NCBI GenBank assembly: GCA_030065755.1
Contig: JASJDA010000003.1
Span: 5,454-69,453, forward strand
Direction: 5' to 3'
Source of the DNA: Prochloraceae cyanobacterium
Lineage (GTDB): Bacteria > Cyanobacteriota > Cyanobacteriia > Cyanobacteriales > JASJDA01
DNA: 64,000 nucleotides
This document shows positions 5,549-60,719 of the stretch, one piece after another. Each line of letters starts with the position of its first letter. Position 1 is the first letter of the stretch. Made by a program: the position numbers and the translations under genes. The notes beneath the pieces were generated by a model, which saw only the letters and a program-made list of their open reading frames with translations, was not told where the DNA came from and did not search any database.

Positions 5549-5560
5549 GTTACCATCCCC

Positions 5561-8762: not shown

Positions 8763-11700
8763 TTAGTAGACTTCTAGCATAGCAATTGTTTCTCGTGCTC
8801 GATCGTGAATTTCTTGTCCCACCTGTTCATTTTGCAACAAACCATTTAATTGCTGTCTTATTTGTATTGTAATCTCGTCTTTGTTATTTTTAGAAACCCA
8901 GCTTCTATCTAATACACATTTAGCAGCCAAGAAAAGACTAGAATAATTATTTTTTTCATTTTTTTCTTCGATCAGATAATCCATGAGTTTAACAAAAAAA
9001 CGTCTGTCGAGCATACTAGCAGTAAAACTAAGTGTTTCGTACCAAGAATCATCGTCCAATCGCTGGCTAAAAAGATTAGTTTTTAGATATTCAAATTCTA
9101 TTTCTCGTTTTTTCTCAAATTTATCAATCCAAGACCAAGCACAGAAAAATTCTAAAAAACTACGATGAACAAAACCATACTTATCATCACCATAAAAACA
9201 AAGTATAAAGCTGCGAGTAGTTAGTCTTTCTCGCAACCTTCTGGCAAGCAATATTGTATTTTCTAAATATAAGTATTTGAGATATTCAATGATAATATTG
9301 TCTAAATGTTGTTGGTTAATATATAAATTTTTCTGGTGATTGTTCGGAATGCTATCGGCTTTATTTTGAATTTCGTACGCTACTTGACGCAATATTTCTT
9401 GTTTATCTTTGTCGTCCAGTTGGTCTATAGTTGAATCTGAACCTCGATAGTCTTGGGGTAAATTTTTGTCATTTTCCCAACGATGTAACAGTACCTTAGA
9501 TGCTTCTTGATAAAATCTTACTTTATCTATAGCAAGTACGTCGGATCGACTTAAAATTGCCATCATTGTTAATAGCAAAGGATTTCCAGCAAGTTCTCTT
9601 AAAGCAGGAGAATTGTCAATATAATTTTGTAGGCGATCGCGTTTTAATTCTGCTTCAGTTTTATCTTCAAAAGAAGAATCATGCCATTTTTCAAGAAACT
9701 CTTCAATTTGTTCTTTGTTTAAATCTTGTAACTTAAAATGGCGAAAATTAGCATTTTGTAATCGCTGTCGCTGTTTTTGATAACCAATTATTCGCGATGT
9801 AATTATACTTCTTGCTTTGGGATATTCAACAGTAAAATTAATAATATCAATAACGACATTTTCTCTTTCTCGCTCGCTCAACACTTCATCTAAACCGTCA
9901 AAAATCACTAAAGACTGGCGATTTTTAAGCCATTGATGTAGTCCTTTTTGATTTAAATTACCCCCAATTACTCCTGTTCCTTTCTCTAAATATTCTAGAA
10001 AATTTTGGGATAATTTTTTTTGTTTATTTTGGATATATTTGCGCAATTGAATTAACAAAGGCAATTCTGATTTTGGCAAAGTACTTAGTGATTGTCGCGC
10101 CCATTCCAAAATTTTATACTGAATCAAAGTAGACTTGCCAGAACCAGTATCCCCTAAAATTACTACATATTTATAATTATTATCTGGATTAAATAAATCC
10201 AAAATTGAACAAATATTATTCGATCGTTGGCTATTTTCCTCACGGACATTTTGAGGAATAAAAATTTTCCATAACTTTAAATTATAGTTGGAGCCATCAG
10301 TAGCCAAACTATCTAGCCGAAGTCTACTATAAGCTTTTTGGATACCTTGCTGATAACGAAGTAGATCGAAATCAGGTGAAATAGGAGTAAGTCGATCGGG
10401 AATTTTGGTAATTGTCTTAAAGAGTTCTCTTAATTCATCAGACTCTTGCAGAATAGGTTTTACTTTTCTAACATAGCGCTTTGCTAACCTTTCCCAGTTA
10501 AAATCAGTTGGTAAAGACTTTAAATTAAGGTCATTCCAAGTTGTTTTTAGTAAGACAGTATCGAGAGGTATAGTTTCATCTGAAGAATTCCCCAGAGCTT
10601 GACTTATAGGTTTACCTAAAGCTTGTAATATTGATTTATCACGTATGAATTTATTTAGTGAATCGCTATAATATTTGACTTCATCATCATTGAGATCTGC
10701 ATCTTCTAATTCTTGCTGCACTAATTCTAAGAAAAGCTTTTGCGCTTGACCAAAAGCCTTTTGCAGAGGTTTTTCTTGAGCTAGAGAACCCAGACCTTCA
10801 ATGCTGTCCTTAAAAAAATCTTTAACAAGATCTTTCAAAGCATCCTTTGTTATTTTGCCAAGAACCTCTTTAAAAGCAAACCCAGCAGGAAATTGAATTC
10901 CCCACGCGACCAACAACCAATTTAAATTAGCTATAGTCTCGTTGCTAGTGTCTTTCAACTTTTCAGCCAACTTAGCGTAATCTCCCCCCAATCCCTCTAA
11001 TACTTCTAGAGATATTCGAGCATAGGCTTGTTGAACTACCTCCTTTTTTCCCTCTTCTTCATCTTCTGATGAGGTTTTTAATAAACAGACGCACTCTTTC
11101 AAAGATTTTCTTAAATGGCTTTCAATATATTTTGATATTGTATTAAAAATAAAGACAGAATCACTCAAAGGAGCATCATTTAATAAAATCCTCCTGATGT
11201 CTTTGTGCATTACATCAAATAGAACTAGATCGGGATTAGTATCTGTACTAATCTCCGTTAATGGTTTCAACAATCCTCCTAAAAATACTTCTGCTACATG
11301 AACTGATTGAGACTGAGGTAACAAAGTTTTTTGAATTAAGCGAACCACAGGTAAAGTTATAACAGGTGCAGCCATTAATAACCCTGCTAATTTCCTTCCT
11401 AAAGGAGAAGATATTCTCCGAAAACGCTCTATTAGTTGTTCTGCGCTTAATTGACTAACTCGATTTTGAGGTAACTGGGATGGTGGAGTAAAATCGGATG
11501 CTGAAGGAAAAACAAAACCAGCCATTATTTTGTCGTGTTTTCCTACTAAGAACTCACTCCAACGACTGGCAAATTCTTGTTCTAAGGTTAAAACAGGAAT
11601 TTTTGACCCTTGTTTTAAGTCAAAATCTTTCCATAGAAGCAGTTCGTGAATATGTAAATTTCGATTGGCAACTCCGCGATCGGCAACTACTGGTATTAAA

Positions 11701-12674
11701 TTAGCTAATTGCACTGCAGCACCTATTCGTAATCCGCTTCTCAACCACACGGTATTGGGTAAGATTTGCACAATAGCAACAGGCTGATGTTTTGTCCAAT
11801 TTGTAAAAGTTGACAGAAGCTTTCCATCAAACCACATTTGAGCCACACAATCACTAACAATTAAAATTAAACGACGACCTGTGAGATCTATTAATTCTTG
11901 AGGATTTTTAAACTGTACTTGTTTGCTAAATTTAGTCCTAATAGTAATTTTTCCCTGATTATTAGTGGTTAATCCCCAAGTGCGAACTTGCCGAAAAATG
12001 CCGTAATGTTCTAAGAGTTCCTTTAATTCATTAATAAGATGTTTCCAAAGCACCATTGATGAATTGTCATCCACTACTAAAGCGAGATCCAACCAGGGTT
12101 CAGTTTCACTTTTGAGAATAGGAATACAGATACTTTCTTCGACCGTGCGTTTTACTGTTTCTACTTCATCAAGGATGGTTTTTCTTCCAGACTCCACTCG
12201 ACGCATCAAAGGACGTAAAGCTTTGACCAATTCTAAGGGGTCTCTCAAGGAAGGGGGATCTGTATATTTTAGGGGTAAAGTTTTTCCATCTGGAGTTGGT
12301 GTTGTATTGGCATAAAGTGGAGTTGAGGGTTCCTTATCTTGAGTTGAGCGTTTGTCTTTATCACCCTCTTTATTAGTACCTGTGGGAGGAGGAATCGTGT
12401 CCGATTTATCTGTGGGAGGAGAAATCGTGTCCGATGTACCTGTGGGAGGAGGAATCGTGTCCGATTCAAAATCTAAATCTAGGTTATCAGATATGGATTT
12501 TCGTTTGTCCCCTTCTTGTAGTTTTAAAGCTAACCAGAGAACATCCGCAATCTCTTTTCCCGTCAAATCAAAATTGACATTTAAACGACAAATTAATTCT
12601 TTTAGTTTCTTATTTGCTAATTTTTCTTGAGCCATTTTTATTGTTTCAGTCGCTCTGATTTTAATGAGGTACAA
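8763..12674 (-). CDS. vWA-like (SAV_2336 N-terminal type) protein fused to a helical domain and a NACHT NTPase; effector of a vWA-MoxR-VMAP system
   Basis: EIADVLWLA, ALRPLMRRV, LALVVDDNSSM, LIVSDCVAQMW, HVAEVFLGGLL; then Walker A GDTGSGKST, Walker B IFDGLDEV, NPLLLTM, FVHRSFLEFFCA. True start may be the ATG at 12635. Confidence 0.85.
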   Translation of the reverse strand: MYLIKIRATETIKMAQEKLANKKLKELICRLNVNFDLTGKEIADVLWLALKLQEGDKRKSISDNLDLDFESDTIPPPTGTSDTISPPTDKSDTIPPPTGTNKEGDKDKRSTQDKEPSTPLYANTTPTPDGKTLPLKYTDPPSLRDPLELVKALRPLMRRVESGRKTILDEVETVKRTVEESICIPILKSETEPWLDLALVVDDNSSMVLWKHLINELKELLEHYGIFRQVRTWGLTTNNQGKITIRTKFSKQVQFKNPQELIDLTGRRLILIVSDCVAQMWFDGKLLSTFTNWTKHQPVAIVQILPNTVWLRSGLRIGAAVQLANLIPVVADRGVANRNLHIHELLLWKDFDLKQGSKIPVLTLEQEFASRWSEFLVGKHDKIMAGFVFPSASDFTPPSQLPQNRVSQLSAEQLIERFRRISSPLGRKLAGLLMAAPVITLPVVRLIQKTLLPQSQSVHVAEVFLGGLLKPLTEISTDTNPDLVLFDVMHKDIRRILLNDAPLSDSVFIFNTISKYIESHLRKSLKECVCLLKTSSEDEEEGKKEVVQQAYARISLEVLEGLGGDYAKLAEKLKDTSNETIANLNWLLVAWGIQFPAGFAFKEVLGKITKDALKDLVKDFFKDSIEGLGSLAQEKPLQKAFGQAQKLFLELVQQELEDADLNDDEVKYYSDSLNKFIRDKSILQALGKPISQALGNSSDETIPLDTVLLKTTWNDLNLKSLPTDFNWERLAKRYVRKVKPILQESDELRELFKTITKIPDRLTPISPDFDLLRYQQGIQKAYSRLRLDSLATDGSNYNLKLWKIFIPQNVREENSQRSNNICSILDLFNPDNNYKYVVILGDTGSGKSTLIQYKILEWARQSLSTLPKSELPLLIQLRKYIQNKQKKLSQNFLEYLEKGTGVIGGNLNQKGLHQWLKNRQSLVIFDGLDEVLSERERENVVIDIINFTVEYPKARSIITSRIIGYQKQRQRLQNANFRHFKLQDLNKEQIEEFLEKWHDSSFEDKTEAELKRDRLQNYIDNSPALRELAGNPLLLTMMAILSRSDVLAIDKVRFYQEASKVLLHRWENDKNLPQDYRGSDSTIDQLDDKDKQEILRQVAYEIQNKADSIPNNHQKNLYINQQHLDNIIIEYLKYLYLENTILLARRLRERLTTRSFILCFYGDDKYGFVHRSFLEFFCAWSWIDKFEKKREIEFEYLKTNLFSQRLDDDSWYETLSFTASMLDRRFFVKLMDYLIEEKNEKNNYSSLFLAAKCVLDRSWVSKNNKDEITIQIRQQLNGLLQNEQVGQEIHDRARETIAMLEVY
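12376..12465. repeat. 3 x 30-bp coding tandem repeat (SDTIPPPTGT-like) in the vWA linker
   Basis: TGTGGGAGGAG(G/A)AATCGTGTCCGAT recurs at 12381, 12411 and 12441. Confidence 0.9.
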
Positions 12675-12919
12675 ATTTCAACTTTTTAAATAACTTCTTG
12701 AATCAACAAAATAATTTTTTTATGTGCTAGATAAATATGACAATTATTATAGAGACCTTTGGGTTTTAACACCTTCACTTCCGTCAGTGCAAACTTTATG
12801 AATTTTAACTTCTGCTCTCGCAGTAAGCTGCTATTTATTTAAATTGCACTTTACTTTTTTAGTGCTGTACCCCTTACGGTCAAACAATAAAACTAGAAAA
12901 TTAAATGCATAACAGCGTA

Positions 12920-14122
12920 TTACCAATCACTTTCAGTAAGTGGTTTCATTAACAAATCTCGAAGTCTATCTTTTTGGTCTCGATCTTGAGGACTATTTTC
13001 ATGGGTAATTATATAAATCGCATTTAATAGTTGATCCGTTGCTTTATCCATTGTCTCTCCTTGCTCCGGAACAAAGTGCTCAATTAATTGATTGATTTCG
13101 TCAGTTTTTTCGTTAAATAAATCTTCTGTAAAATGAGCTTTGACAATATTTTCTAGTTCCGGAACTGTAGGATCTGGCATTTTCACTCGTAAACATCGCC
13201 TTTTAAAGGCTTTTGGAAAATCTCTCTCTCCATTACTGGTCATAACAATAATAGGAAAAGCATAACATTTTACTCGTCCTCCTTTAATCGTGACATCAAT
13301 ATCTTCATCGCTCGTTTGCACTGTAAATAAATTATCTTTTTGTTTATTTTTAGATCGTCTAACTAATTCAGCAATTTCAAATTGTCCTTCTTCAAATAAA
13401 TTTAATAAATCGTTGGGTAAATTAATATCGCTTTTATCAATTTCGTCAATTAAGAGTACCCTAGGTAAAAAAGACGGTAAAAATGCTGTTCCTAATGCTC
13501 CTAATTTAATATATTGTCCAATGGGTTGTTCTTCACTATGAGAACCATCAGGATTAGGAGAATTATTAGGAATATGATTATTATTAGCATCTTGGAGTCG
13601 AGCTATTGCATCATAGCGATATAATCCTTCTTGTAAAGTAGAACGAGCAGTAATTGACCAAGACAATACTGAACCTAAATTTAATTCATAAGCGATCGCA
13701 TAAGCTAAAGATGTTTTTCCAGAACCAGGTCTTCCTGTTACCAATAAAGGTCTTCTCAAATAAATAGCTGCATTAACAGCATCTCTAACTTCGGTTGCAT
13801 CCTTAGAATCAGAAAGTCTAAAATTTTTACCTTTTTTTATCTCTCTTTCTTTCTTATTTGCTCTTTCAATTAATTGCTCGAAGCGGTTTCTGTCTATATC
13901 TTCAGGAGTTTGTTTTTTTTCTTTTTCCTTGTCTGTCTCAGACTCACTAATAACAAAATCTTCTGTTTTTCCAAACTGTCTCCAGGGCGGAGATTCTATC
14001 TTTTTAATATTGTCTCGTAGTTTGTGAATGTCCTCTTCAGTTAATTCTTTTTCTCTTCCTTTTCCTTGGAATAGATACCATTCAGCCATAATGAAATCTC
14101 CTTGTCTGTATTTATCTATCAA
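12920..14122 (-). CDS. MoxR-family AAA+ ATPase (VMAP-system type)
   Basis: PPWRQF, VNAAIYLRRPLLVTGRPGSGKTS, GLYRYDAIARL, LLIDEIDKSDINLPNDLL, TSNGERDFPKAFKRRC. Confidence 0.92.
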   Translation of the reverse strand: MIDKYRQGDFIMAEWYLFQGKGREKELTEEDIHKLRDNIKKIESPPWRQFGKTEDFVISESETDKEKEKKQTPEDIDRNRFEQLIERANKKEREIKKGKNFRLSDSKDATEVRDAVNAAIYLRRPLLVTGRPGSGKTSLAYAIAYELNLGSVLSWSITARSTLQEGLYRYDAIARLQDANNNHIPNNSPNPDGSHSEEQPIGQYIKLGALGTAFLPSFLPRVLLIDEIDKSDINLPNDLLNLFEEGQFEIAELVRRSKNKQKDNLFTVQTSDEDIDVTIKGGRVKCYAFPIIVMTSNGERDFPKAFKRRCLRVKMPDPTVPELENIVKAHFTEDLFNEKTDEINQLIEHFVPEQGETMDKATDQLLNAIYIITHENSPQDRDQKDRLRDLLMKPLTESDW

Positions 14123-16299
14123 AATCCAGTAAATATATCATCTCCTGGATTAGTAAATTTATCATCTCCTAAATTTTTATCAAATTTAGAATGTAATCGA
14201 TGAGGATCGTCAAATAAAAAACCAAGATGATATCCTAAATATTCATTTTGTTTTTCTTCTGGTTCTACATAAGCATTTTCCCTAATAATCCTAATTGATT
14301 CAAATAGGTTTTCAGGCTTTTTAATATTATCAACGGTTAAAACATCTTCAAATTCATAATTGTCTATCTTTTCTTCCTCTCTAAGCTTTAAATTTTCCAA
14401 GAAATTTCCTCTTAGCCAAAATGCAAAAGGAATACCATGACGAAAAATACTAGTTAAAAATTCTTCAATATGACAAGTATAACTTTCTTCTAGTAAAGGA
14501 CAATTAATATTAATGTTAATGAATTTAGTTAGTTGTTTTCCTAATTTTTTCCAGTTGTAGTTTTTTTCTAGTTTCTTCAGACAGATTACTCTCTTTTTAA
14601 TAGTTTCTGGGGTCAATGAGTCTTGTAAATCACTCAATTTCTTCCATTTACTTAATAAACTATGATGATAACTATAACTACCACTATAGCGATCGTAAGA
14701 ACGGAGAACGAATTTGTATCTAGAACCAAACCACTCAGGATCGGATTCATTAATAGGAATTTTTTGAATTTCAGGGGCAAAAACAACCAAATATTTTTTA
14801 GGCAAAAATAATTCTATTGTCAATTCATTTACATTTTCATAAAAAACTAACTTTTTATTACTTTCTTCAATAAATTGATAAACCTTTGAGCAAATATATT
14901 CAATATCTTCTGAGTTTACATCAATAGATTTATCTTCTATTAAAGTAACTGTTTTTCTTTTGACTTCTTGGGAGTCAGACATTTCTTCAAAAATCAATTC
15001 GGCTTTAAATTCCAATTTAGACTGGTGATGAATATTTGGCTCAACTAAAATAAGTAAGTAAGGTAACCCAATCTTACAAATAGTTTCTTCTTGCCTGTCA
15101 TGTTTAACCTTTGATAACTGATTTAAAGTATTGCTATCTATTCCCAGTTCTTGACTTGTTTGATTAATCCATTGATTTAGCTCATTTTTAATGGCTAATA
15201 GATCGGATTGCTGAGATTCAAAAAGAAATTGAGCAAATTCTACGACTAACGGTAGATTAGATTCATGATTCCGATCTAGTTTAATTTCTAATAAAATCTC
15301 TTTGAGATAATCGAAATTGTTTTCTTCGGATAAATGAAGATAGTTTCCTTCAGGATCCTTACTATATCTATATAAAAATTGATAACAATAACGAGATATA
15401 TTGTGCCATTTAAGAACATTTATGATTTTAACAAATTCTTGCCATTGCGAATCTAAAATATCAAATTGTTTTGCAGATTTAGTCAAAGCAATTCTTGACG
15501 GTCTATTACCATATTGATCTTCGTAAGATAAATAAATAGGACCTGGATCATTTTCATGATCTGTTTTAAAAATATCTTGTACATTTTCTATGATTTTATT
15601 TATAGATTCAGTAGATAATAAGTTATCTTGTTTATTTAGCTCTTTTAGTAATATTTTTGAAAATAATCCTGTTTTTTCCTTATCAAGATTTATACTCGGA
15701 TATCCTTTTTCGGTTGCTAGTAAAACAACTTGTTTACGTTTTTTATCTTGTTCTCCGGAAGGAAAATCATAATTTGGTAATGATACCAATTCCTCAGAAG
15801 AATAATTAGCATAAGAATAATATTTAGCACAAGCATCAAAGATCAATATTTGCTGATATAAAATACCAAATAACTCTGAGTTTAAATATTCTAATAAAGA
15901 GTTTAAATTGAGATTTTCATTTCCATCATCATAGTAAAATCTACGGTCATTACGGCCAATCATAACACCGTGTCCACCCCAAAATATATATAGTAAATCT
16001 CCTTTATCTTTATTCTTTGGAATAACTTTAGTAATTGCTGTGCGAATATTGTCAAAGGTAGCTTTTTGTTTTTTATCCCATAGTGATTGTAAAGATTTTT
16101 TATCCTTTACTATGTCTGGTTTAGATAATTCAGAAATATACAGTTCAATATTGTTAATAGGAACTTTTCTTGTCAACAGCCAATCTGCAAATTTCAAGGC
16201 ATCTGATGCGGGTCCATCTAAGTCCCAGTCCTGACCCCGATCGTATTTTTCTATACCAACAATCAGTGCGTAAGTTTTTTGAGGCTCGGGTACATTCAT
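14119..16299 (-). CDS. Caspase-like (C14) peptidase fused to VMAP middle/C-terminal domains
   Basis: YALIVGIEKY, LDGPASDA, catalytic His (WGGHG) and Cys (FDAC); C-terminus IELFLP, FVLRSYDR, GIPFAFWLR, LFDDPHR matches the VMAP-C pattern. Overlaps both neighbours by 4 bp. Confidence 0.82.
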   Translation of the reverse strand: MNVPEPQKTYALIVGIEKYDRGQDWDLDGPASDALKFADWLLTRKVPINNIELYISELSKPDIVKDKKSLQSLWDKKQKATFDNIRTAITKVIPKNKDKGDLLYIFWGGHGVMIGRNDRRFYYDDGNENLNLNSLLEYLNSELFGILYQQILIFDACAKYYSYANYSSEELVSLPNYDFPSGEQDKKRKQVVLLATEKGYPSINLDKEKTGLFSKILLKELNKQDNLLSTESINKIIENVQDIFKTDHENDPGPIYLSYEDQYGNRPSRIALTKSAKQFDILDSQWQEFVKIINVLKWHNISRYCYQFLYRYSKDPEGNYLHLSEENNFDYLKEILLEIKLDRNHESNLPLVVEFAQFLFESQQSDLLAIKNELNQWINQTSQELGIDSNTLNQLSKVKHDRQEETICKIGLPYLLILVEPNIHHQSKLEFKAELIFEEMSDSQEVKRKTVTLIEDKSIDVNSEDIEYICSKVYQFIEESNKKLVFYENVNELTIELFLPKKYLVVFAPEIQKIPINESDPEWFGSRYKFVLRSYDRYSGSYSYHHSLLSKWKKLSDLQDSLTPETIKKRVICLKKLEKNYNWKKLGKQLTKFINININCPLLEESYTCHIEEFLTSIFRHGIPFAFWLRGNFLENLKLREEEKIDNYEFEDVLTVDNIKKPENLFESIRIIRENAYVEPEEKQNEYLGYHLGFLFDDPHRLHSKFDKNLGDDKFTNPGDDIFTGF

Positions 16300-17507
16300 A
16301 ATTTTCTAATCCTATTTGCAATTGCTTCCCATGTAGCATCATTTTCCCAATAACCACCATGAGAGTGGGGAAAAGGAAGCTTATTATCAACAGGAATATC
16401 TTGCACTCTGTTCGGAAAAACATTTCCGCCAATAAAACTAAGAAAGTCATAGCGATCGTAGATATTTAACCATTCAGGAAAAGCATTAGAATCAGGTAAT
16501 GGGGTACCAAATTTTAAACTTTGCAGTGCATTAATTTCATAAAAATAAGGAACTTGAGAGCCAACTGTTACTAAGAGCTTAACTTTAGGAATTTTATTTT
16601 TAATTAATAAATCAACACTAGCAATTCCTCCTAAACTATGCGCAAGTAAAACTACCGGAGGTTGAGCATCTTTAATATAGTTCTCAAGCAAATCCCTAAT
16701 TGTTTGACCATGCCCTTGATAGAGTAAAATATCTCCAATCATTGGGGTCGTAATATCTGAAATTAGCCCTCTTTTTCCTGCTAATCCATAGGTGGGTAAT
16801 TTTAAGATTTGTTTTATAAACCAATTTCCAGGACCACGTTCTGAAGGCATAATTTCACTACTAATACTTTTAATAATTTTCTCTCTCTCAGTTGGGTTTT
16901 CCTCAATACTAGGGGGAGATTTTTTTTGTATTTTGTAAATAGAAATTGACTCAGCAATAATAGCTCTCGATATTATATCTCGATATTCAATTAAAGTATC
17001 ATCTGAAACTTGTTTGAGTGCTTCTCTATAAGAATTAGAGCTAACAACATTTTGATGAGCTTGACCAAAGACATCTGCAATTTCACTTTCTTTTAATTGA
17101 TTTTCAAATGATGTATTATTTGAAGGATTTAATTGTCTTACCTTCTCATCTATTATGTCACTGGGTTCTTTCTCACCTGGCCTAGATCTCTGTTGCTTCT
17201 TTGCTATTATCGAGAATAAACGTAATTCATAAAAAGAATCTAGAGATAGCTCCATCCAACGAACAGTATCTTCATTTACTGTAAAATCATTTCTAGTTGA
17301 ATCATAGAAAGGGATAGAAGCCCCATTAGCATTCAATTTAGCCCCTAGATAATTTCCCCACGAACAAGGAACCACTTCAATCTCTGGTAGTCTTTTTTGA
17401 AGTTCTAACTTAACTTTTGGAAATATTGTTTTTGATAATGATGTTTTTGTTTTTGATAATGATGTTTCTCTTACCGATATTCCATGTACAAATATTACTG
17501 TTGCCAT
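16296..17507 (-). CDS. Alpha/beta hydrolase (lipase/esterase-like)
   Basis: VIFVHGI oxyanion region, GDILLY, nucleophile AHSLGG, WLNIYDRYD, HGGYW (Ser-Asp-His triad). Confidence 0.85.
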   Translation of the reverse strand: MATVIFVHGISVRETSLSKTKTSLSKTIFPKVKLELQKRLPEIEVVPCSWGNYLGAKLNANGASIPFYDSTRNDFTVNEDTVRWMELSLDSFYELRLFSIIAKKQQRSRPGEKEPSDIIDEKVRQLNPSNNTSFENQLKESEIADVFGQAHQNVVSSNSYREALKQVSDDTLIEYRDIISRAIIAESISIYKIQKKSPPSIEENPTEREKIIKSISSEIMPSERGPGNWFIKQILKLPTYGLAGKRGLISDITTPMIGDILLYQGHGQTIRDLLENYIKDAQPPVVLLAHSLGGIASVDLLIKNKIPKVKLLVTVGSQVPYFYEINALQSLKFGTPLPDSNAFPEWLNIYDRYDFLSFIGGNVFPNRVQDIPVDNKLPFPHSHGGYWENDATWEAIANRIRKL

Positions 17508-28173: not shown

Positions 28174-29673
28174 TTATTTTGATTTTAAAGTTAAATAATT
28201 ATTAGAAACCGAAGAAGAGGTCAGGGGAAAAGTCACGGTGAAAGTGCTTCCAACTCCCTGCTGAGAACGTAGAGAAATACTGCCCCCCATTCCTTCAACT
28301 AGGGTTTTAACAATTGAAAGACCCAAACCAGTACCCCCAGTAGCGCGAGAGCGATCGTCGTCAACGCGATAAAAACGCTCGAAAATACGAGCTTGTTGTG
28401 CTAAGGGAATGCCAATACCGCGATCGCTAACTTGAATGGCAACTTTTGCTCCTTGCCGAGCTAATTTGACCGTAACTGGCTCTCGATCGTCGGAGTATTT
28501 AACAGCATTGTCAATTAAATTGAGCAGTACTTGTTTGAGGCGATTTATATCTGCTTTGACAATCATCGTCTTAGAACTAGATTTCACGTTGACAGTACGA
28601 TTGCAATATTCTCTCGCCATCCCTACTATTTCTTCGATGAAATCGTTGAGTACGATAGCCTCTATCTGAAAGTGCATCCTACCACTATCTACTCTTGCTA
28701 AATCTAATAAATCTTGCATTAATTGGATAGTGCGATTGGCTTCTGAAGATGCTATTTCCAGTGCTTCCCGTTGAGGTTGTGTCAAGTTATGACCTCGGCG
28801 CAAAGTACTTTGTAAATAGCCAGAAACAATAGTTAGGGGAGTGCGTAATTCGTGGGAAACATTGCTGAGTAATTGCTGTTGGTGTTCCCAAGCATCCGAG
28901 AGACGAACTAACATTTTCTCGAAGGTTTGTGCCAATTCCTTAACCTCGCTAGGAGGATTTTCTAAGTCTATGTGCGCTTCTTTGAGATCTTCAGCGGAAA
29001 TTTTTTCTGTTAGTTTAGAAATCCTCTGCAAAGGTTGAAGAGATCTCCCCACGTAAATGGCGAGCGCCACTGTTATTCCTGCAATTGACAGCAAGCTGGC
29101 TATACTCAAATTGCGTATCAGGCGCAAAAACATGGTTTGATCGCCAGTGATATCCTGAGCGATATAAAATTTCCCCAGCCTATTTCCTTTGACCTCTAGA
29201 GGAGTAGCGCAGAGCAACCAGTAGCGTCCTTCAACTTGCTTTATTTCGGGAATTGGGGGGACTTGTGTCAGGCTTAATAGATCCCTACCTTTAATCCCCA
29301 TTTCAATGGGATCCGATTGAGCGAGAACAATACCATCTTGATTTTTTATCCACAGTAAAATGTTAGCGGTAGTCCGGCGATCGATGGCTTTTTGCATCGC
29401 ATTTGGAAGCAAAACCATATCGCTGTAGATTTCTACATCGTGGGGGAAGCGATCGGCAATGTATTGAATATTTTGCTTGTGAGTAACAACTAGAATATTT
29501 TGCATCCTCAAACTCGTCCAGATGGCAACACCTCCTAGTCCGAGTGCTGAAAGGGTAACAACACCAACCGTTAACCTCATTCGTAAAGAAGACGGATCGA
29601 TCTGCTTTTTAAATTCACTTATTTTTTTACGCAGATGCGTGAAGAATTTCATAATATTTTTGTTAGATGCCAT
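28174..29673 (-). CDS. Membrane sensor histidine kinase (2 TM + HAMP), ManS/Hik27-like
   Basis: H-box NVSHELRTPLT, NLIDNAVKYS, DRGIGI, GGTGLGL. The ManS-like call is recalled similarity of the N-terminal region and is unverified. Confidence 0.9.
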   Translation of the reverse strand: MASNKNIMKFFTHLRKKISEFKKQIDPSSLRMRLTVGVVTLSALGLGGVAIWTSLRMQNILVVTHKQNIQYIADRFPHDVEIYSDMVLLPNAMQKAIDRRTTANILLWIKNQDGIVLAQSDPIEMGIKGRDLLSLTQVPPIPEIKQVEGRYWLLCATPLEVKGNRLGKFYIAQDITGDQTMFLRLIRNLSIASLLSIAGITVALAIYVGRSLQPLQRISKLTEKISAEDLKEAHIDLENPPSEVKELAQTFEKMLVRLSDAWEHQQQLLSNVSHELRTPLTIVSGYLQSTLRRGHNLTQPQREALEIASSEANRTIQLMQDLLDLARVDSGRMHFQIEAIVLNDFIEEIVGMAREYCNRTVNVKSSSKTMIVKADINRLKQVLLNLIDNAVKYSDDREPVTVKLARQGAKVAIQVSDRGIGIPLAQQARIFERFYRVDDDRSRATGGTGLGLSIVKTLVEGMGGSISLRSQQGVGSTFTVTFPLTSSSVSNNYLTLKSK

Positions 29674-30285
29674 TTAAAAATTTTTGGCGCTATGATTTTG
29701 TATATCGAATTCAAATCGTTGTTGGTAATTTGTTTCGCCGTAAAGATTAAAACTAATAGTCGGTTCTTCTGATATTGCTTCTACACTGTGAATAGCATCG
29801 GCAGTAAAGCTAATAATATCTCCTGGCAGGAGAATTTTTTCTCCAACTTTTTCAATGCGATCTCGATTTTCACGATCGCCACTGCGCTGCCAAAAAGTAT
29901 TTTTTTCTTCGCCACTAATTAATGCTACTACTCCCCAGGTAGCGTGATTGTGTATGGGAGAGACTTTTTTTGGTTCCCAGACTACAGTTTGTACGGTTAA
30001 AGGAAAATCGATCTCGTCATATAGCATTAAAACCGACCAACCTGTTTCGGGATTGGGTTCTCGATATTCACCTTGCAGCCAGTAGGAACTGGTAAGTAAG
30101 CGACGCACTAGGGGACGAATTGCTTCGAGACGCTGGCGATCGTCTTCAACTGTCTCGATAATATCTTCTAAGTCAGTGAGGAAGCGATAGAGTCGATATG
30201 GTTTTTCTGACCATTCCCAGTTATTTGGTATCTCACAAGCAATACAGCTACCGTCATCTTGCACTAACCAATCCGTATTCTCCAT
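29674..30285 (-). CDS. Cysteine dioxygenase-like cupin
   Basis: SPIHNHATWG and DAIHSVE give a 3-His metal site; TISFNLYG. Stop codon directly abuts the kinase start. Confidence 0.82.
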   Translation of the reverse strand: MENTDWLVQDDGSCIACEIPNNWEWSEKPYRLYRFLTDLEDIIETVEDDRQRLEAIRPLVRRLLTSSYWLQGEYREPNPETGWSVLMLYDEIDFPLTVQTVVWEPKKVSPIHNHATWGVVALISGEEKNTFWQRSGDRENRDRIEKVGEKILLPGDIISFTADAIHSVEAISEEPTISFNLYGETNYQQRFEFDIQNHSAKNF

Positions 30286-30446
30286 TATCGATCGCCCCTA
30301 GCTCAATTTTTGTTGCCTCAATCTTAATTTAGTAGAAAAACATCTGTTTGAGATGATTTTTACCCTAGCTGCACCTAAATTTTTCCTGAGAAAATAAAGT
30401 TTTTAGCCGCGATCGCCTTTTTTAGTCTTAAATATTTTTTAGTCGG

Positions 30447-30479
30447 TTCTCAGTGAAAACTCAGTTTAATCTCGTTAAA
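30447..30479. promoter_or_regulatory. Three 11-bp-phased direct repeats, candidate OmpR-family (ManR-like) site
   Basis: TTCTCAG (30447), AACTCAG (30458), ATCTCGT (30469) in the divergent promoter region. Confidence 0.5.
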
Positions 30480-30517
30480 TTAAATATTAGATATCAATTT
30501 CTATTTGAGAGATAAAT

Positions 30518-30739
30518 ATGAAAATCAAATCTGTTACTATGCTCGCGATCGCTCCTATTTTATCTTTGGCACTTGTAACTGCGTGTACTAACCCCTGTGC
30601 TGCTAAAGAAAAACCTGCTGGCGATCGGACAGAAAACCCCTGCGCTGCTAAAGAAAACCCCTGCGCTGCTAAAGAAAATCCTTGCGCTGCTAAAGAAAAC
30701 CCTTGCGCTGCTAAAGAAAACCCCTGCGCTGCTAAGTAG
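30518..30739 (+). CDS. Small lipoprotein composed of NPCAAK(E) repeats
   Basis: Signal peptide with lipobox LVTA-C, then six NPCAAK motifs. Synonymous variation (CCC/CCT, AAC/AAT) among the 21-bp units supports this reading frame. Confidence 0.85.
   Translation: MKIKSVTMLAIAPILSLALVTACTNPCAAKEKPAGDRTENPCAAKENPCAAKENPCAAKENPCAAKENPCAAK
30632..30736 (+). repeat. 5 x 21-bp coding tandem repeat
   Basis: GAAAA(C/T)CC(C/T)TGCGCTGCTAA(A/G) x5, plus an upstream copy at about 30590. Confidence 0.95.
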
Positions 30740-30983
30740 TGGTTTAGGTATTGGTAAAAATCTGATTTCTTCTAGTTTGAACTTTGTCTGGGTGCGCGAT
30801 CGAAGTCTTGTCACAACAGACAAAGTTTACTGTTTTAATATCTTAAGTTTACTGTGTTATTTGTGAATTGACTGCGATCGCCTCAACTTTGCTTGCATAA
30901 TCTATTTCTTTATATCTACTCCATATATACTTTGAGAGAAAGTAATAAAATATTAATTACTCAGTAAGACAAAAGTAGAAAAT

Positions 30984-33940: not shown

Positions 33941-34261
33941 TCACCAAATATCGCCAAAGTCAGCGAATGGTAACGAATCACCAAAATCGCCAAATCCAGG
34001 ACCGATTAGATCGCCAAAGTCACTAAATGGTAACGAATCGCCAAAATCTCCCCAAAATGCTAGTAAATATTCTTCTAACTCTGCTTGAGAATTAAGTGAT
34101 GCTTGTTGGTGTTTTTCGCGAAGTTTTTCATGAATGGTTACCAGACGCTCTGAAATAGTTTTCTTCGGCGATGAAATTTTAGCCTCAGCAACAGCAGGAT
34201 TAACTGTTGCTAGAGCCATTAATATTCCTAAATAGCCAAGCTTGGTGTTGACTTTTATCAT
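33941..34261 (-). CDS. grrA: GrrA/OscA-type triceptide (cyclophane) RiPP precursor
   Basis: Signal-like N-terminus MIKVNTKLGYLGILMALA, leader ISERLVTIHEKLRE, core with eight aromatic-x-Asp motifs; lies downstream of the rSAM gene. Confidence 0.85.
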   Translation of the reverse strand: MIKVNTKLGYLGILMALATVNPAVAEAKISSPKKTISERLVTIHEKLREKHQQASLNSQAELEEYLLAFWGDFGDSLPFSDFGDLIGPGFGDFGDSLPFADFGDIW

Positions 34262-34292
34262 TAAATATCCTCAACTAAGACAAATTGGTTAA

Positions 34293-34324
34293 AACAGTTA
34301 TCAGTTATCAGTTATCAGTTATCA
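34293..34324. repeat. STRR (CAGTTAT)x4, with an inverted partner at 34441-34471
   Basis: AACAGTTATCAGTTATCAG... versus ...CTGATAACTGTT overlapping the rSAM 3' end. Confidence 0.8.
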
Positions 34325-34449
34325 GGTCTCCGTAACCCATTGTTTGGGAGAGAAAACGGAACAGCCTTACTTACTTGTTATTTTCCCCAAAAAACCTACT
34401 CTTGCCTGTTCCCTGTTGCCTTTTCCCTCTCCCTTCGGGAGATAACTGT

Positions 34450-35646
34450 TCAATGTTCGCTGATAACTGTTAATCCTAAGCGGCTTTCTAAGTTTTGTAA
34501 AATTATATCAGCAATTATCTGTTTGTTATATTGACAAGCCATTGTTTGCGAACAGCTAAAAGTGTTATTTTCCCAATATTTATTACTGGGCGCACCTCCA
34601 CCACAGAGACAGAAATACTCGCAGGTTTCCTGACATTCCCTTACTCCCTTATTAATATCATGATAGAGTCTTTGAAATTTATGACTTTGACAAACTGACT
34701 CTAAAGAATCTACTCTAAGGTTGCCCAGCACAAAATCACCATATTGTTCGCTTTTCATTGCCAGTAATTCTGGGGAAAATGTCGAAAAATTACCTTGGCT
34801 GTCGATACTAACAATAGAGAAAGGATGACACAACTCATTTTTTATTCTTTGTTTACCCGAGAGAATCAAAGAACTGATTTGCTCGAACTCTCGAACTTGA
34901 AATTCACCTTTAGTTGCTACTGTTAACTCCCAAAACCTCTGAAAAAATGCTCTAATCCGCTCTGCTTGATGAGATGAATTTAAGGAAGAATTACGATGAA
35001 TTCCTTCAATTTCTTCGATATTAAATGCTACTTTATTAATGCCATTATCTCGGAAAAAATTAAAAATTTCATCGGGATAATCGAGAGAATTTGCCGTCAA
35101 GACAGCAATGATTTGAAAATCTACTTCATTTTTTTTCAGTAACTCAATTCCTCTCATCGTTCCGGCATGAGTTCCTAACCCCGTTCGAGTCTTGCGATGG
35201 GCATCATGAATAAAATCAGGTCCATCTAAGCTAACCCCAACTTTAAAAGGATATTGTTGGAAAAAATCACACCACGCTTGGTTAATTAATAGTCCATTAG
35301 TTTGCACAGAATAAACTATTTTAGTATTGTCAGAACAGATTTGAAGCTGTAAGTTATCAATAATCTGTAAAGCTTTTTGGTAAAAGCTCAGAGGAACAGT
35401 AAGAGGCTCGCCAGCGTGCCAACAAACGGTAAATTTTTTCCTCATCCAAGAACTAGTTAGTATTCTTTGGAAAATTGGACTAATTAGCTCCAAAGATAGT
35501 TGGTGTTTTGATTGGCGGTCTGGTAAATAACAGTAATCGCAATCTAAGTTACAGTAAGATGATGCCTGAATAATGACCAAGCGAATCGAGCCAAATGACG
35601 AGATTTCTTTCTCATTTAATAACTCTTCAGTAGACTGTACGCTCAT
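34450..35646 (-). CDS. grrM: Cyclophane-forming radical SAM/SPASM peptide maturase (GrrM/OscB family)
   Basis: CNLDCDYC (CxxxCxxC), WHAGEPL, FNIEEIEG, FSTFSPELL, CQETCEYFCLCGGGAPSNKYWEN. Confidence 0.92.
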   Translation of the reverse strand: MSVQSTEELLNEKEISSFGSIRLVIIQASSYCNLDCDYCYLPDRQSKHQLSLELISPIFQRILTSSWMRKKFTVCWHAGEPLTVPLSFYQKALQIIDNLQLQICSDNTKIVYSVQTNGLLINQAWCDFFQQYPFKVGVSLDGPDFIHDAHRKTRTGLGTHAGTMRGIELLKKNEVDFQIIAVLTANSLDYPDEIFNFFRDNGINKVAFNIEEIEGIHRNSSLNSSHQAERIRAFFQRFWELTVATKGEFQVREFEQISSLILSGKQRIKNELCHPFSIVSIDSQGNFSTFSPELLAMKSEQYGDFVLGNLRVDSLESVCQSHKFQRLYHDINKGVRECQETCEYFCLCGGGAPSNKYWENNTFSCSQTMACQYNKQIIADIILQNLESRLGLTVISEH

Positions 35647-35648
35647 TA

Positions 35649-36719
35649 TTAAAATGCTGTCTTAGGTATTCTTTCCACTGAATCAACAATGCCTTGGAAA
35701 TGATTGGTAAGGACTTCTTGAGAATAAGGAACAACGCCAGATTCTCCAAACCATCCATCAAACATTTGCTTAAATTCAGGGTCTTCAATAAGATATCCTT
35801 GAATCGCCCTTAAAATACTATAATTAACAAAATCTCGCCAGTTAGAATCATTTTCTCGTAGCAAGCAGGCGTAGGATTCGCGACTAATTAGATCGTCTGG
35901 CGGGACAATTTCCCAAGTATCTGGTTTAGTGGCTCTTTGTTTGAGTGCCTCCAGAAGAATTCCATCACCAGCATAGACATCAATTTTTCCCTGTTGTAGT
36001 TGAGAGAAACCATCCTTACCATTTGCCACAGTAACCAAATTTAGTCGAGTGTCAAGAACTTTGAGAACATTTTCAGTGGTTGTATTTCGCTCAACCCCAA
36101 TGCGCAGAGAACGCAAATCTTTTAGAGAATCCAACTTGGTTCCTTTTTTTACCAATAATTGAGTTCCAGTGACAAAATAACTGAGGGAAAAATCCACATA
36201 TTTTTCTCGATTCCAAGTAAAGGTAGTCGGACCGCAGGAAATATCAACTTTGCCATCCATAACCAAATCAAAACGATTTTGCGTATTGACTTCTATTAAT
36301 TCCAGCTTGAGGGGCTTTTTTAAGGCTTTTTCTAGTTGGCTTTTTACAACTGTCATCATGTCAATTCCGTAGCCTACCCATTTCCCCTTTTCATTGACAT
36401 AACCAAAGGGTTCGGCATCCTTCCAAGCACCTGCTCTTATAACTCCCGTGCGCTTAATACGCTCTATAGTAGTTTCTGCGAGACTGGAGGATTGTAGAAA
36501 AATACTGAAGACAAATGCTAAAAAGCCAATATAGAAAAATTTGTGGTTAAAGATTCTGTTCAATATTTTAACTCCTGAAACACTATTATTTTTCGTTTTT
36601 GACAGAGTATCTATTTCTCTAGAAATCCTTCTAGCTGTAAGATAACGATTGCGAAACAGAAGGGCATTAATTGTTTTTGAAGCTAGTAAAAAATTTCCTT
36701 TGCTTGACATAAAATGCAA
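35649..36719 (-). CDS. grrP: Periplasmic substrate-binding-like orphan protein of the Grr system
   Basis: SBP family 3 motifs (DAEPFGY, GYGID, TFTWNREKYVDFS, DGILLE) immediately upstream of grrM. True start is probably downstream, nearer the signal peptide FFYIGFLAFVFSIFL. Confidence 0.8.
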   Translation of the reverse strand: MHFMSSKGNFLLASKTINALLFRNRYLTARRISREIDTLSKTKNNSVSGVKILNRIFNHKFFYIGFLAFVFSIFLQSSSLAETTIERIKRTGVIRAGAWKDAEPFGYVNEKGKWVGYGIDMMTVVKSQLEKALKKPLKLELIEVNTQNRFDLVMDGKVDISCGPTTFTWNREKYVDFSLSYFVTGTQLLVKKGTKLDSLKDLRSLRIGVERNTTTENVLKVLDTRLNLVTVANGKDGFSQLQQGKIDVYAGDGILLEALKQRATKPDTWEIVPPDDLISRESYACLLRENDSNWRDFVNYSILRAIQGYLIEDPEFKQMFDGWFGESGVVPYSQEVLTNHFQGIVDSVERIPKTAF

Positions 36720-56943: not shown

Positions 56944-56956
56944 GTAAAAACACTCC

Positions 56957-60712: not shown

Positions 60713-60719
60713 TTTTTCT

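Follow-up and report, generated by a model that had tools for sequence, protein, structure and literature searches.

Cyanobacteria possess a conserved gene pair that encodes a small lipoprotein with repeated cysteine motifs and a cupin related to thiol dioxygenases, and at some of the loci the pair is accompanied by a gene for a sensor histidine kinase. In the stretch of DNA analysed here (64,000 nt, referred to as the window), the lipoprotein gene is divergent from the cupin and kinase genes. The lipoprotein gene is genuine and conserved, and the module is predicted to function, probably, in the handling of metal or thiol stress at the cell envelope. From the genomic evidence we infer the metal or redox chemistry of the repeats, the binding of a regulator to the promoter and the substrate of the cupin. 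A literature search using the repeat motifs, enzyme-family terms and the locus tags of Picosynechococcus sp. PCC 7002 (titles and abstracts for the locus tags) revealed no description of the module or of the pairing of cupin and lipoprotein, and the fusions of NPCAxK repeats to redox domains are newly observed.

The repeat lipoprotein and the divergent promoter

The lipoprotein gene (30518..30739, plus strand) encodes a precursor of 73 aa with a signal peptide (residues 1-22) and a lipobox cysteine at position 23 (codon 30584-30586). The translation consists of MKIKSVTMLAIAPILSLALVTAC followed by TNPCAAKE, KPAGDRTE, four NPCAAKE units and a terminal NPCAAK. Five of the six NPCAAK units are contiguous, with a spacing of 7 residues between the cysteines, and the first unit is set off from the others by a spacer of 8 residues. 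The N-terminus, which was judged by eye, contains a hydrophobic signal and the lipobox-like sequence LVTAC, in agreement with the pattern [LVI][ASTVI][GAS]C; lipidation and a periplasmic location of the protein are thus predicted. The units are encoded by a 21-nt tandem array (30590..30735, plus strand; Tandem Repeats Finder: 6.8 copies, score 195), and wherever the six units differ, the change is synonymous and affects the third codon position of the lipoprotein frame. The Atlas model has a pLDDT of 0.25, i.e. the protein is modelled as disordered. Searches against Pfam and NCBIfam gave no match, and an Atlas search returned solely the protein's own 'putative lipoprotein' cluster. A hairpin that precedes a U-rich stretch 3' of the gene (30779..30828, plus strand; MFE -25.1 kcal/mol, z -1.93) is a possible, weak terminator, as 9 of 200 shuffled sequences fold equally well. 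Small repeat-lipoprotein genes can be missed by annotation, and in the RefSeq record of PCC 7002 it is the opposite strand that is annotated.

The lipoprotein and cupin genes are separated by a divergent intergenic region of 232 bp (30286..30517). Upstream of the lipoprotein gene, three direct repeats in 11-bp phase (TCTCAGTGAAA, ACTCAGTTTAA and TCTCGTTAAAT; 30448..30480, plus strand) end 37 nt ahead of the ATG. A series of direct repeats in the -35 region with a phase of 10-11 bp is typical of OmpR/PhoB-type regulons, and the three units could therefore constitute a binding site for a response regulator of this type. The pattern TCTCAG-N6-CTCA has one exact match in the whole window, which is this repeat. 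Moreover, an inverted TCTCAG box (30370..30391, minus strand; TCTCAG at 30391-30386, intergenic position 106) faces the cupin-kinase operon as part of an inverted repeat, and two Coleofasciculus loci (L070 and L072) carry a full phased TCTCAG dimer at the equivalent cupin-facing place. The phased motif is conserved across related loci. TCTCAG occurs 3.4 times per kb in 45 cupin-lipoprotein intergenic regions versus 0.47 times per kb in all locus DNA, and the phased dimer is about 36-fold enriched (1.11 versus 0.031 per kb). Fifteen of the 32 phased dimers fall within 1.3% of the locus DNA and represent about six lineages. The TTTTTTAGTC and TTTTTAGCCG repeats at 30400-30445 (17-18 bp spacing) were also considered but are not counted as part of the operator, because none of the eight related intergenic regions compared shows them. 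For the gap of 91-105 bp between the cupin and lipoprotein genes of the Rivularia/Calothrix loci, the consensus RNA structure contains 0 pairs. This gap resembles a conserved promoter (TATAAY), and co-transcription is therefore not established for these loci.

The cupin and the sensor kinase

The cupin gene (29674..30285, minus strand) encodes a cytoplasmic 3-His protein of 203 aa that belongs to the CDO/MDO thiol dioxygenase superfamily. The residues H112, H114 and H166 align with the iron ligands of solved thiol dioxygenases (HDH/H of 3MDO) and are invariant in 34 cupin sequences. Further hallmarks of the family are an invariant GWS motif at positions 82-84 and the sequence S-F-N-L-Y at positions 178-182, in which Tyr182 is invariant and Asn180 is conserved in at least 90% of the sequences. 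At the position of Asn180, a His is present in 3MDO, CDO and MSDO, and the family thus lacks the Ser-His-Tyr second-sphere triad (S-x-H-x-Y). Ser84 aligns with Gln62 of 3MDO and Arg60 of CDO, which we take to be the residues that bind the substrate carboxylate, and the cupin has no carboxylate-binding residue at this position. In addition, the protein possesses a conserved N-terminal hairpin containing Cys14.

The AF2 model of the cupin has a pLDDT of 90.9. In a Foldseek search against the PDB, the top 43 ranked matches were all thiol dioxygenases (TM 0.59-0.73, normalised to the query), and comparison with the folds of thiol dioxygenases, 3-mercaptopropionate dioxygenase included, gave TM values of 0.71-0.76 with E about 1e-13; for 3-mercaptopropionate dioxygenase the range is 0.71-0.75. 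Likewise, all 25 matches of the family profile among PDB sequences are thiol dioxygenases, and the identity to the solved enzymes is 22-24%. The Pfam model CDO_I (PF05995) gave no match to the cupin either at E 0.01 or at E 10, and no NCBIfam model scored above its cutoff; the close homologue P0081 bears a precomputed PF05995 label. By sequence and modelled fold, the cupin is a thiol dioxygenase homologue, for which catalysis is predicted.

The TAA stop codon of the cupin gene immediately precedes the ATG of the sensor histidine kinase gene (28174..29673, minus strand; 499 aa). The kinase is composed of TM1 (34-55), a periplasmic domain, TM2 (189-209) and the HAMP, HisKA and HATPase_c domains. 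Cys155 (codon 29209-29211) in the periplasmic domain is invariant; all 18 aligned cupin-linked kinases share the conserved domain with this single invariant cysteine. The best full-length model is TIGR01386 (heavy-metal sensor kinase, cztS/silS/copS), which aligns with the protein end to end (residues 28-483 to model positions 2-457) at 223.1 bits, below the cutoff of 292.55. The window ORFs include the kinase with its HisKA/HATPase domains and no OmpR-type response regulator. At 15 of the related loci, OmpR-type regulators (PF00072 and PF00486) follow the kinase gene within 5.2 kb of the lipoprotein gene. Thus, the gene arrangement described in the initial annotation holds: the gene of a 73-aa lipoprotein with six NPCAAK units shares its promoter, which has phased OmpR-type repeats, with a 3-His cupin, and the cupin abuts a sensor kinase. 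The description of the kinase as 'ManS-like' found no support.

Related loci and possible roles of the module

The protein collection contains 68 short relatives of the lipoprotein, and 66 related genome loci were recovered by a search with a six-sequence alignment. The search pattern demands [GA]C at the lipobox, and the lipobox in the 66 loci is therefore a condition of retrieval and no independent finding. Relatives of the repeat without a lipobox and from outside the cyanobacteria exist as well (e.g. P0048, P0055 and P0058). Across the relatives, the motif is [N/D]-P-C-A-[A/G/S]-K with P-C-A and K invariant or nearly so, and a locus has 1 to 14 repeats. Judging by their names, many of the source organisms are benthic or form mats, and marine and mat-forming genera are prominent among them. 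Related species contributed many of the loci (at least eight are from Coleofasciculus), and raw locus counts therefore overstate independence.

A cupin gene lies within 2.5 kb of the repeat gene at 49 of the 66 loci (36 divergent, 12 co-directional, 1 other), and the linkage was also found on plasmids of Picosynechococcus PCC 7002 (pAQ7), NIES-970 and Leptolyngbya BL0902, of which PCC 7002 is genetically tractable. An orthologous kinase occurs within 3 kb at 17 of the 49 cupin-bearing loci. The conserved linkage that the initial annotation had made its first check thus applies strongly to peptide and cupin and more weakly to the kinase. An HMM search of the neighbours revealed that the cupin is by far the commonest, followed by HK, RR, CcdA (14), DUF1499 (9) and ECF sigma factors (8). 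ECF sigma/anti-sigma pairs and DoxX-like genes recur at a minority of loci, which lends some weight to the analogy with bufferins (HvfA type) that had been proposed. In agreement with the earlier statement that the window has no DUF692 enzyme, a Pfam scan of 51 window ORFs detected neither DUF692/MNIO nor DUF2063; both were also missing from the recurrent neighbour clusters (present in at least 4 loci) scanned in Pfam. The CsgG-like, ComFB, Fur and SufE neighbours in the window were considered as parts of the module but are placed outside it, because they are conserved in few loci only (2, 1, 3 and 3 of 73 sources, window included).

The fusion of the repeats to other periplasmic domains had been overlooked in the initial annotation. 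At 20 of the 66 loci, the repeats are fused to a TlpA-type thioredoxin domain with a WCxxC motif (PF00085, E 2.7e-13). In 12 of these 20 cases a CcdA/DsbD_TM gene follows directly, and at seven listed loci (L003, L019, L022, L029, L032, L044 and L053) CcdA is followed by a cytoplasmic thioredoxin. CcdA directly downstream of a short form was found at 0 of 46 loci. Among 24 longer relatives, 8 have a thioredoxin domain, 4 a YHS domain (NF041384, 154 bits), 3 a DM13 domain and 2-3 a SoxA/TsdA-type cytochrome c domain with CxxCH (P0210, 31.5 bits; P0212, 37.2 bits; cutoff 27), and the NPCAxK repeats are the N-terminal modules in all four kinds of fusion. In the window, the lipoprotein stops after the repeats without a thioredoxin domain, and no DsbD_TM protein is present among the ORFs. 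Because of these fusions, the repeats appear to do their work in the mature form of periplasmic redox or metal proteins. Together with CcdA, the fusions indicate periplasmic working thiols at least as much as a modified natural product.

According to the explanation to which we give a little less than an even chance, the lipoprotein is a periplasmic polythiol with a lipid anchor, which is controlled by a two-component system and buffers oxidants or thiophilic metals, and the cupin is induced together with it as a partner in the cytoplasm. In this case, the conserved envelope module of cyanobacteria would comprise two or three units. The small gene product would be exported via Sec, lipid-anchored and intrinsically disordered, and the evenly spaced [N/D]-P-C-A-[A/G/S]-K motifs would provide periplasmic thiols, which may act as ligands of thiophilic metals such as Cu(I) and Hg(II) and/or take up oxidising equivalents as disulfides. 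In about one third of the genomes, a TlpA-type thioredoxin lipoprotein carries the repeat module as an arm at its N-terminus, and CcdA and the cytoplasmic thioredoxin could supply electrons to this protein and thereby keep the polycysteine arm reduced. The kinase, where present, would sense the stress via its periplasmic domain with the one invariant cysteine, and an OmpR-type response regulator encoded outside the window would activate both divergent promoters via the 11-bp phased TCTCAG repeats. The cupin may be a cytoplasmic Fe(II) enzyme of the thiol dioxygenase family that is made together with the lipoprotein and, as a second effector, disposes of a thiol compound. Neither cysteine nor 3-mercaptopropionate itself would be this compound, since the enzyme lacks the residue that binds the carboxylate. 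Hints at metals come from the end-to-end alignment of the kinase with the heavy-metal sensor model and from genes for a mercuric reductase-like oxidoreductase, ArsR, ArsM and TVP38/DedA that adjoin the module in Pseudanabaena galeata and NIES-970. However, such metal-related neighbours are few (MerA-like genes within 5 kb at 4 of 66 loci), and the conserved neighbours include no efflux pump, metallochaperone or multicopper oxidase. It also counts against a polythiol buffer that it is not obvious what a cytoplasmic dioxygenase would do in a system confined to the periplasm, that the cupin is the most faithful partner, ahead of the kinase and CcdA, and that the invariant P-C-A...K flanks resemble an enzyme recognition motif more than a simple ligand.

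We regard the main rival explanation as possible but doubtful. It states that the cupin oxidises the repeat cysteines, e.g. to sulfinates, in the cytoplasm before Sec export and lipidation, with the repeat peptide NPCAAKENPCAAK as candidate substrate. The product would be a lipid-anchored modified polymer with a metal-chelating or other envelope role, as in bufferins and oxazolins, except that a mononuclear 3-His cupin would replace the MNIO. With similar reserve, one may think of a new class of lipoprotein RiPPs, in which a 3-His cupin oxidises internal cysteines to yield an envelope metallophore or redox polymer, whose state is read by the invariant periplasmic cysteine of the kinase. Such a role is suggested by cupin and peptide being the minimal conserved unit (32 of the 49 cupin loci have no orthologous kinase within 3 kb), by a linkage that persists through rearrangement between divergent and co-directional orientation and by the cytoplasm as the sole compartment common to cupin and precursor. 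It would also fit the active site, which retains the three His and the Tyr, has Ser84 in place of the carboxylate-binding Arg/Gln and Asn in place of the second-sphere His, as well as the extra hairpin with Cys14 and the strict [N/D]PCAxK flanks, which recall the EGKCG recognition motif. Moreover, DoxX, ECF sigma/anti-sigma factors and cytochrome c fusions are described for bufferins, too (PMC12452194), and RiPP precursors with a lipobox have been reported (PMC13056109). However, the repeats also occur on thioredoxin, CcdA-linked, YHS, DM13 and cytochrome c proteins, which suggests that their cysteines are reactive and have not been oxidised beforehand. To our knowledge, enzymes of the CDO family act on small thiols or N-terminal cysteines and not on internal ones. 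A leader-recognition domain and a partner protein are absent, and 14 of the 63 loci intact at the contig edges have no nearby cupin, of which 4 are in assemblies with a cupin-linked locus elsewhere. Furthermore, no cupin-peptide fusion is present among the best 150 cupin representatives; the 548-aa match P0215, considered as such a fusion, is a tandem cupin duplicate. Complex prediction with the cupin and precursor alignments gave a score of 0.00 ('no answer') and weighs neither way.

The cytochrome fusions P0210 and P0212 would also suit an improbable alternative, in which the poly-Cys arm is a flexible carrier of sulfane sulfur or of thiosulfate adducts, comparable to the swinging cysteine arm of SoxY, and the cupin oxidises a cytoplasmic persulfide or thiol in mat cyanobacteria exposed to sulfide or thiosulfate. 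It agrees with the benthic or mat-forming habit of many sources, as judged from their names and general ecological knowledge, and with DoxX-like genes beside the repeat gene in Picosynechococcus, Leptolyngbya BL0902, L018, L019 and L071. However, the cytochrome fusions are few, a DoxX-like gene lies within 5 kb at just 3 of 66 loci, and genes for SQR, rhodanese, persulfide dioxygenase and Sox proteins are missing from the conserved neighbours. It is most improbable that the repeats are a mere flexible tether of thioredoxin lipoproteins, that the short genes are functionless, decaying remnants and that the adjacency of the cupin is historical. Repeat-less thioredoxin lipoprotein paralogues in the same operons (L003, 5418-5915; L020, 6221-6712; L053, 4537-5109) and the variable repeat number could be explained in this way. 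The 46 short genes are found intact, however, in many genera and retain the signal peptide and the lipobox, the units differ only synonymously and the P-C-A and K residues hardly vary, and cupin linkage is commoner for the short forms (37 of 46) than for the long forms (12 of 20).

If the peptide acts as proposed, the module would be an unnoticed and widely conserved envelope system of cyanobacteria with a lipid-anchored polymer of cysteine motifs at its core. Should the cupin modify the peptide, it would represent the first thiol dioxygenases acting on internal protein cysteines, and the field of signal-peptide RiPPs and bufferins would gain a new enzyme class. Otherwise, the module still defines a new accessory 'polythiol arm' on periplasmic thioredoxins, cytochromes and proteins with YHS or DM13 domains, a new two-component regulon whose putative operator can be recognised and a distinct, highly conserved thiol dioxygenase subfamily.

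Comparison with known systems

The copMRS operon of Synechocystis is an effector-first two-component operon, in which the effector is coupled to the kinase, a second effector is encoded divergently or nearby and a direct-repeat promoter is self-regulated. The module resembles it in the effector gene translationally coupled to a sensor kinase, the divergent second effector and the direct-repeat promoter. It differs in its effector, which is a cytoplasmic cupin instead of a metal-binding protein of the periplasm, and in the absence of a response regulator gene from the window. The long forms of the repeat protein resemble the TlpA/ResA-CcdA pathways, as TlpA-type CxxC thioredoxin lipoproteins are followed by CcdA and a cytoplasmic thioredoxin, whereas the window has the short form only and lacks CcdA. 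We know of no NPCAxK polycysteine arm or cupin partner in the described TlpA, ResA and HCF164 systems.

Like the bufferins and oxazolins, which are MNIO-modified signal-peptide RiPP metallophores of the BufA/HvfA types whose cysteines become thiooxazole or oxazolone-thioamide groups, the module combines an exported precursor carrying a conserved cysteine motif, repeated as in the EGKCG oxazolins, with the gene of an iron-dependent oxidative enzyme. According to the account in PMC12452194, bufferin clusters encode a signal-peptide cysteine precursor, an iron oxidase and DoxX, with ECF sigma/anti-sigma factors in one subfamily, and some precursors have lipoprotein signal peptides or cytochrome c fusions. 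A role in copper stress has been proposed (PMC12452194; PMC11626156). Unlike these systems, the module has no MNIO (DUF692) and no DUF2063 partner, its enzyme is a mononuclear 3-His cupin, its motif is NPCAxK, it shows thioredoxin fusions with CcdA and is essentially cyanobacterial, and cysteine modification is hypothetical here. The DAG-RiPPs, which are matured by the lipoprotein pathway, likewise have a small lipobox precursor beside an iron-dependent modifying enzyme (PMC13056109). As described there, they are ChrH-type MNIO products with macrocycles, and thus differ in enzyme family and repeat architecture from the module, for which modification is hypothetical. The cupin itself shares the fold, the three His and the Tyr with 3-mercaptopropionate dioxygenase (4tlf, 6xb9), mercaptosuccinate dioxygenase (8vni) and cysteine dioxygenase. 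It is set apart from the bacterial thiol dioxygenases by the Asn in S-x-N-x-Y, by Ser84, by the extra N-terminal hairpin and by an exported poly-Cys protein as its genomic partner.

The peptide gene and its surroundings

The peptide ORF (73 codons, 30518-30739, + strand) encodes MKIKSVTMLAIAPILSLALVTAC-TNPCAAKE-KPAGDRTE-(NPCAAKE)x4-NPCAAK, in which a hydrophobic signal and a lipobox-like LVTAC precede six NPCAAK units. At the DNA level, the repeat region consists of 6.8 tandem copies of a 21-nt unit, and in the peptide frame the six units vary at synonymous third positions only. As is expected of repeat DNA, further frames are open too; the signal peptide and the lipobox, which are conserved in the relatives, are present in the peptide frame only. 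In the Atlas, the window peptide is modelled as disordered (pLDDT 0.25). Because the repeat leaves several frames open, an NPCAxK gene can be mis-called. On the plasmid pAQ7 of Picosynechococcus PCC 7002 (locus L001, 6001-6314; NC_010474, 183272-183585), RefSeq places a hypothetical protein on the strand opposing the NPCAxK gene. Counts of the family in protein databases may be too low.

The cupin (203 aa, 29674-30285, - strand) is divergent from the peptide gene, with 232 bp between them, and its TAA stop codon directly abuts the ATG of the kinase (499 aa, 28174-29673, - strand), which has two membrane spans and HAMP, HisKA and HATPase_c domains. A scan of 51 window ORFs revealed no response regulator and, as the initial annotation had stated, no DUF692/MNIO enzyme. 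The closest relatives of the peptide, the cupin and the kinase are all cyanobacterial, and the octamer GCGATCGC, which we take to be a cyanobacterial marker, occurs 38 times in the window (0.34 expected). The window DNA is cyanobacterial in character.

Further clusters were observed on the - strand. A cyclophane RiPP cluster of known type (33941-36719) comprises a precursor that resembles GrrA/OscA and contains FGDFGD repeats (TIGR04260, 28.6 bits, narrowly below its cutoff of 31), the radical SAM maturase GrrM/OscB (TIGR04261, 592 bits) and GrrP (TIGR04262, 185 bits, cutoff 190). A conflict-system-like row (8763-17507) consists of a NACHT NTPase that carries an NNH2 domain, an AAA/MoxR-like ATPase, a caspase-VMAP-C protein and an unassigned 403-aa ORF. 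Moreover, a HigB-like toxin ORF adjoins an IrrE-like protein with HTH and M78 peptidase domains (4472-5863), and a TnpB/OrfB_IS605 gene adjoins two AAA_35 proteins, one of which is fused to a long WD40 array (55479-62081).

The NPCAxK family and the long-form operon

The protein collection contained 68 short relatives of the peptide, which share the motif M-K-[VI]-K-Y...L-S-L-G...G-C, NPCA[AGS]K, a roughly 12-residue spacer and 3-14 [N/D]PCA[AGS]K repeats. Across the family alignment the P, C and A of the repeat are invariant. Scanning one genome per species with the pattern [GA]CxNPC[AG][AGS]K[ETP] yielded 66 loci, a sample that excludes non-lipoprotein relatives because the pattern demands a lipobox. 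By name, 61 loci are cyanobacterial, four belong to an "uncultured bacterium" and one was binned as Brocadiaceae. ORF reading divided them into 46 short forms (49-124 aa), with nothing beyond the repeats, and 20 long forms (165-217 aa), in which the same N-terminus leads into a WCxxC-containing thioredoxin domain (PF00085, E 2.7e-13); the source annotation of the latter is "TlpA family protein disulfide reductase". When longer proteins were searched, 24 relatives emerged, of which eight carry thioredoxin, four a YHS (seleno)protein domain (NF041384, 154 bits), three DM13 and two a SoxA/TsdA cytochrome c domain with CxxCH, with one more below the cutoff; of the remainder, one has a low-complexity Pfam label and five to six have no domain. 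Since the repeat is found on thioredoxin, YHS, DM13 and cytochrome c proteins as well as alone, it is, judged from sequence, a portable polycysteine module of exported redox/metal proteins, which is N-terminal, sometimes also C-terminal, and can stand alone.

CcdA is encoded directly downstream of 12 of the 20 long forms versus none of the 46 short forms. The usual order is lipoprotein-thioredoxin, CcdA, cytoplasmic thioredoxin (HCPSC motif), NrtS-like small membrane protein, ECF sigma factor and anti-sigma factor. This operon is a complete predicted cytoplasm-to-periplasm electron path that ends at a protein with a polycysteine arm. A small membrane protein of the NrtS family (NF038050, 113 bits) is a recurrent member of the thioredoxin-CcdA operons (L019, 7835-8065, and seven other loci).

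The cupin, its linkage to the peptide and the promoter

No Pfam or NCBIfam family matched the cupin, even at E 10. A 34-sequence profile matched 25 PDB sequences, all of them thiol dioxygenases, among them mercaptosuccinate dioxygenase (E 2.3e-16), 3-mercaptopropionate dioxygenases (3MDO; about 1e-15) and rat or human cysteine dioxygenase (CDO; about 1e-5). The AlphaFold2 model (pLDDT 90.9, pTM 0.88) superimposes on 3MDO with a TM of 0.71-0.75. H112, H114, H166 and Y182 are invariant in the 34 sequences, and an N-terminal hairpin with Cys14 is conserved. The family differs from characterised thiol dioxygenases in having S-x-N-x-Y instead of S/H-x-H-x-Y, and in having Ser84, part of an invariant G-W-S, where the alignment places Gln62 of 3MDO and Arg60 of CDO, which we take to be the substrate-carboxylate residues. 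A tandem-duplicated relative (P0215 of the protein collection, 548 aa) retains S-x-H-x-Y, which indicates that the Asn variant is confined to the examined peptide-linked subfamily. With 1,712 clusters at 90% identity, the 120 listed being all at least 61% identical, and 28 representatives with E 1e-30 or better at 50% clustering, the family is large and tightly conserved. As no signal peptide was detected in the cupin, it is probably cytoplasmic.

For the neighbour analysis, ORFs of at least 70 aa from the 66 loci were clustered and then mapped. A cupin gene at most 2.5 kb from the peptide gene is present in 49 of the 66 loci, many of which come from related species, e.g. at least eight Coleofasciculus, and the cupin accompanies 37 of the 46 short and 12 of the 20 long forms. 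The initial annotation had suggested a check of whether peptide, cupin and kinase co-occur; the linkage is strong for the cupin and weaker for the kinase, whose orthologue is within 3 kb in only 17 of the 49 cupin-bearing loci (an OmpR-type regulator stands alongside in 15). The layout is divergent in 36 of the 49 (gaps of 108 bp to about 2.2 kb, the largest containing a second peptide gene), co-directional with the cupin first in 12 (91-172 bp; all Rivularia/Calothrix-type Nostocales) and convergent in one (L058). Of the 17 loci that lack a cupin nearby, three are truncated by a contig edge (L024, L039, L071), one has the cupin at 4.6 kb (L010), and for four (L019, L028, L032, L063) the other locus of the same assembly has a cupin beside a short form. 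Peptide and cupin matches from equal-sized contigs in the protein tables, some below 3 kb, are also consistent with linkage. A cluster-HMM search of the 66 loci detected the cupin in 50, CcdA in 14, DUF1499 in nine, ECF sigma, RskA-type anti-sigma and NrtS-like proteins in eight each, a MerA-like oxidoreductase in seven, VTT/DedA in five and a DoxX-like protein in three.

Annotated plasmids agree with the linkage. In pAQ7 and NIES-970, regulator, kinase and cupin share one strand, and peptide, DoxX-like protein and TVP38 are divergent. The PCC 7002 genes are probably SYNPCC7002_G0158-G0163. The Leptolyngbya BL0902 plasmid has peptide-DoxX-cupin, with kinase and regulator 3 kb off. In Pseudanabaena galeata, ArsR is divergent from cupin-kinase-regulator-TVP38-MerA-ArsM; no peptide gene was found in the ArsR-cupin gap, and the same plasmid bears repeats fused to thioredoxin, together with CcdA, 20 kb from the cupin cluster. 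A 45%-identical cupin paralogue lies in a nif cluster of the Pseudanabaena sp. ABRG5-3 plasmid (L006, 5977-6621), flanked by fdxB and a gene of the ArsC/Spx family and without an NPCAxK gene in its neighbourhood.

The phased promoter repeats of the initial annotation (TCTCAGTGAAA ACTCAGTTTAA TCTCGTTAAAT, 30448-30480) are real and conserved. The exact 16-mer pattern has a single place in the window, and an inverted TCTCAG lies towards the cupin in the intergenic region. For TCTCAG, the density is 3.4 per kb across 45 intergenic regions between cupin and peptide versus 0.47 in all locus DNA; for the phased dimer CTCAG-N6-C[TC]CA, it is 1.11 versus 0.031. The dimer spans some six lineages (the window together with L007 and L023; L031 and L050; Coleofasciculus; L033; L070; L072) and is found also without an adjacent kinase. 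The 12 co-directional gaps lack the dimer and have a different conserved promoter-like element instead. Nine Rivularia/Calothrix loci (L042, 5007-5096; L047, 9909-10000; seven more) share a conserved gap of 91-105 bp with GAATCCATTT...GTATAAY and no consensus RNA structure, which is probably a separate promoter or operator, unlike the TCTCAG box. Three copies of TTTTT(T)AG(T/C)C, 17-18 bp apart, also lie in the intergenic region of the window (30400-30445); none of the eight related intergenic regions compared shows them. The periplasmic domain is conserved in 18 aligned cupin-linked kinases, with a single invariant cysteine (Cys155 in the window), and the model that best matches the kinase end to end is that of a heavy-metal sensor family, with a score below the cutoff.

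Interpretation and comparison with known systems

We tentatively favour, at slightly less than even chances, a regulated envelope thiol system composed of a polythiol and a co-induced cupin. The lipid-anchored polythiol would bind thiophilic metals and/or oxidise to disulfides, and could be recycled by thioredoxin and CcdA where these exist. Kinase and regulator would turn the system on via the TCTCAG boxes, and the cupin would be a cytoplasmic effector induced together with the peptide. No other neighbour is as faithful to the peptide as the cupin, and this is the weak point of the thiol-buffer reading.

That fidelity would be accounted for if the cupin oxidised the repeat cysteines ahead of export, which is the main rival and rather unlikely. 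Pre-export oxidation would also explain why the substrate pocket is altered and why the conservation of the repeat motif is enzyme-like, and it parallels bufferin and oxazolin clusters (PMC12452194) and lipobox-bearing RiPPs (PMC13056109). It accords less well with the thioredoxin and CcdA fusions. Less likely than either of these are a sulfur-carrier role, which we regard as improbable, and a mere tether, which is a shade more improbable still.

In the literature searched, no description of the repeat motif or of the gene combination was found. The module resembles signal-peptide Cys-RiPP metallophores, TlpA-CcdA pathways and effector-first two-component operons; relative to these known kinds, the enzyme partner and the repeat module are new.
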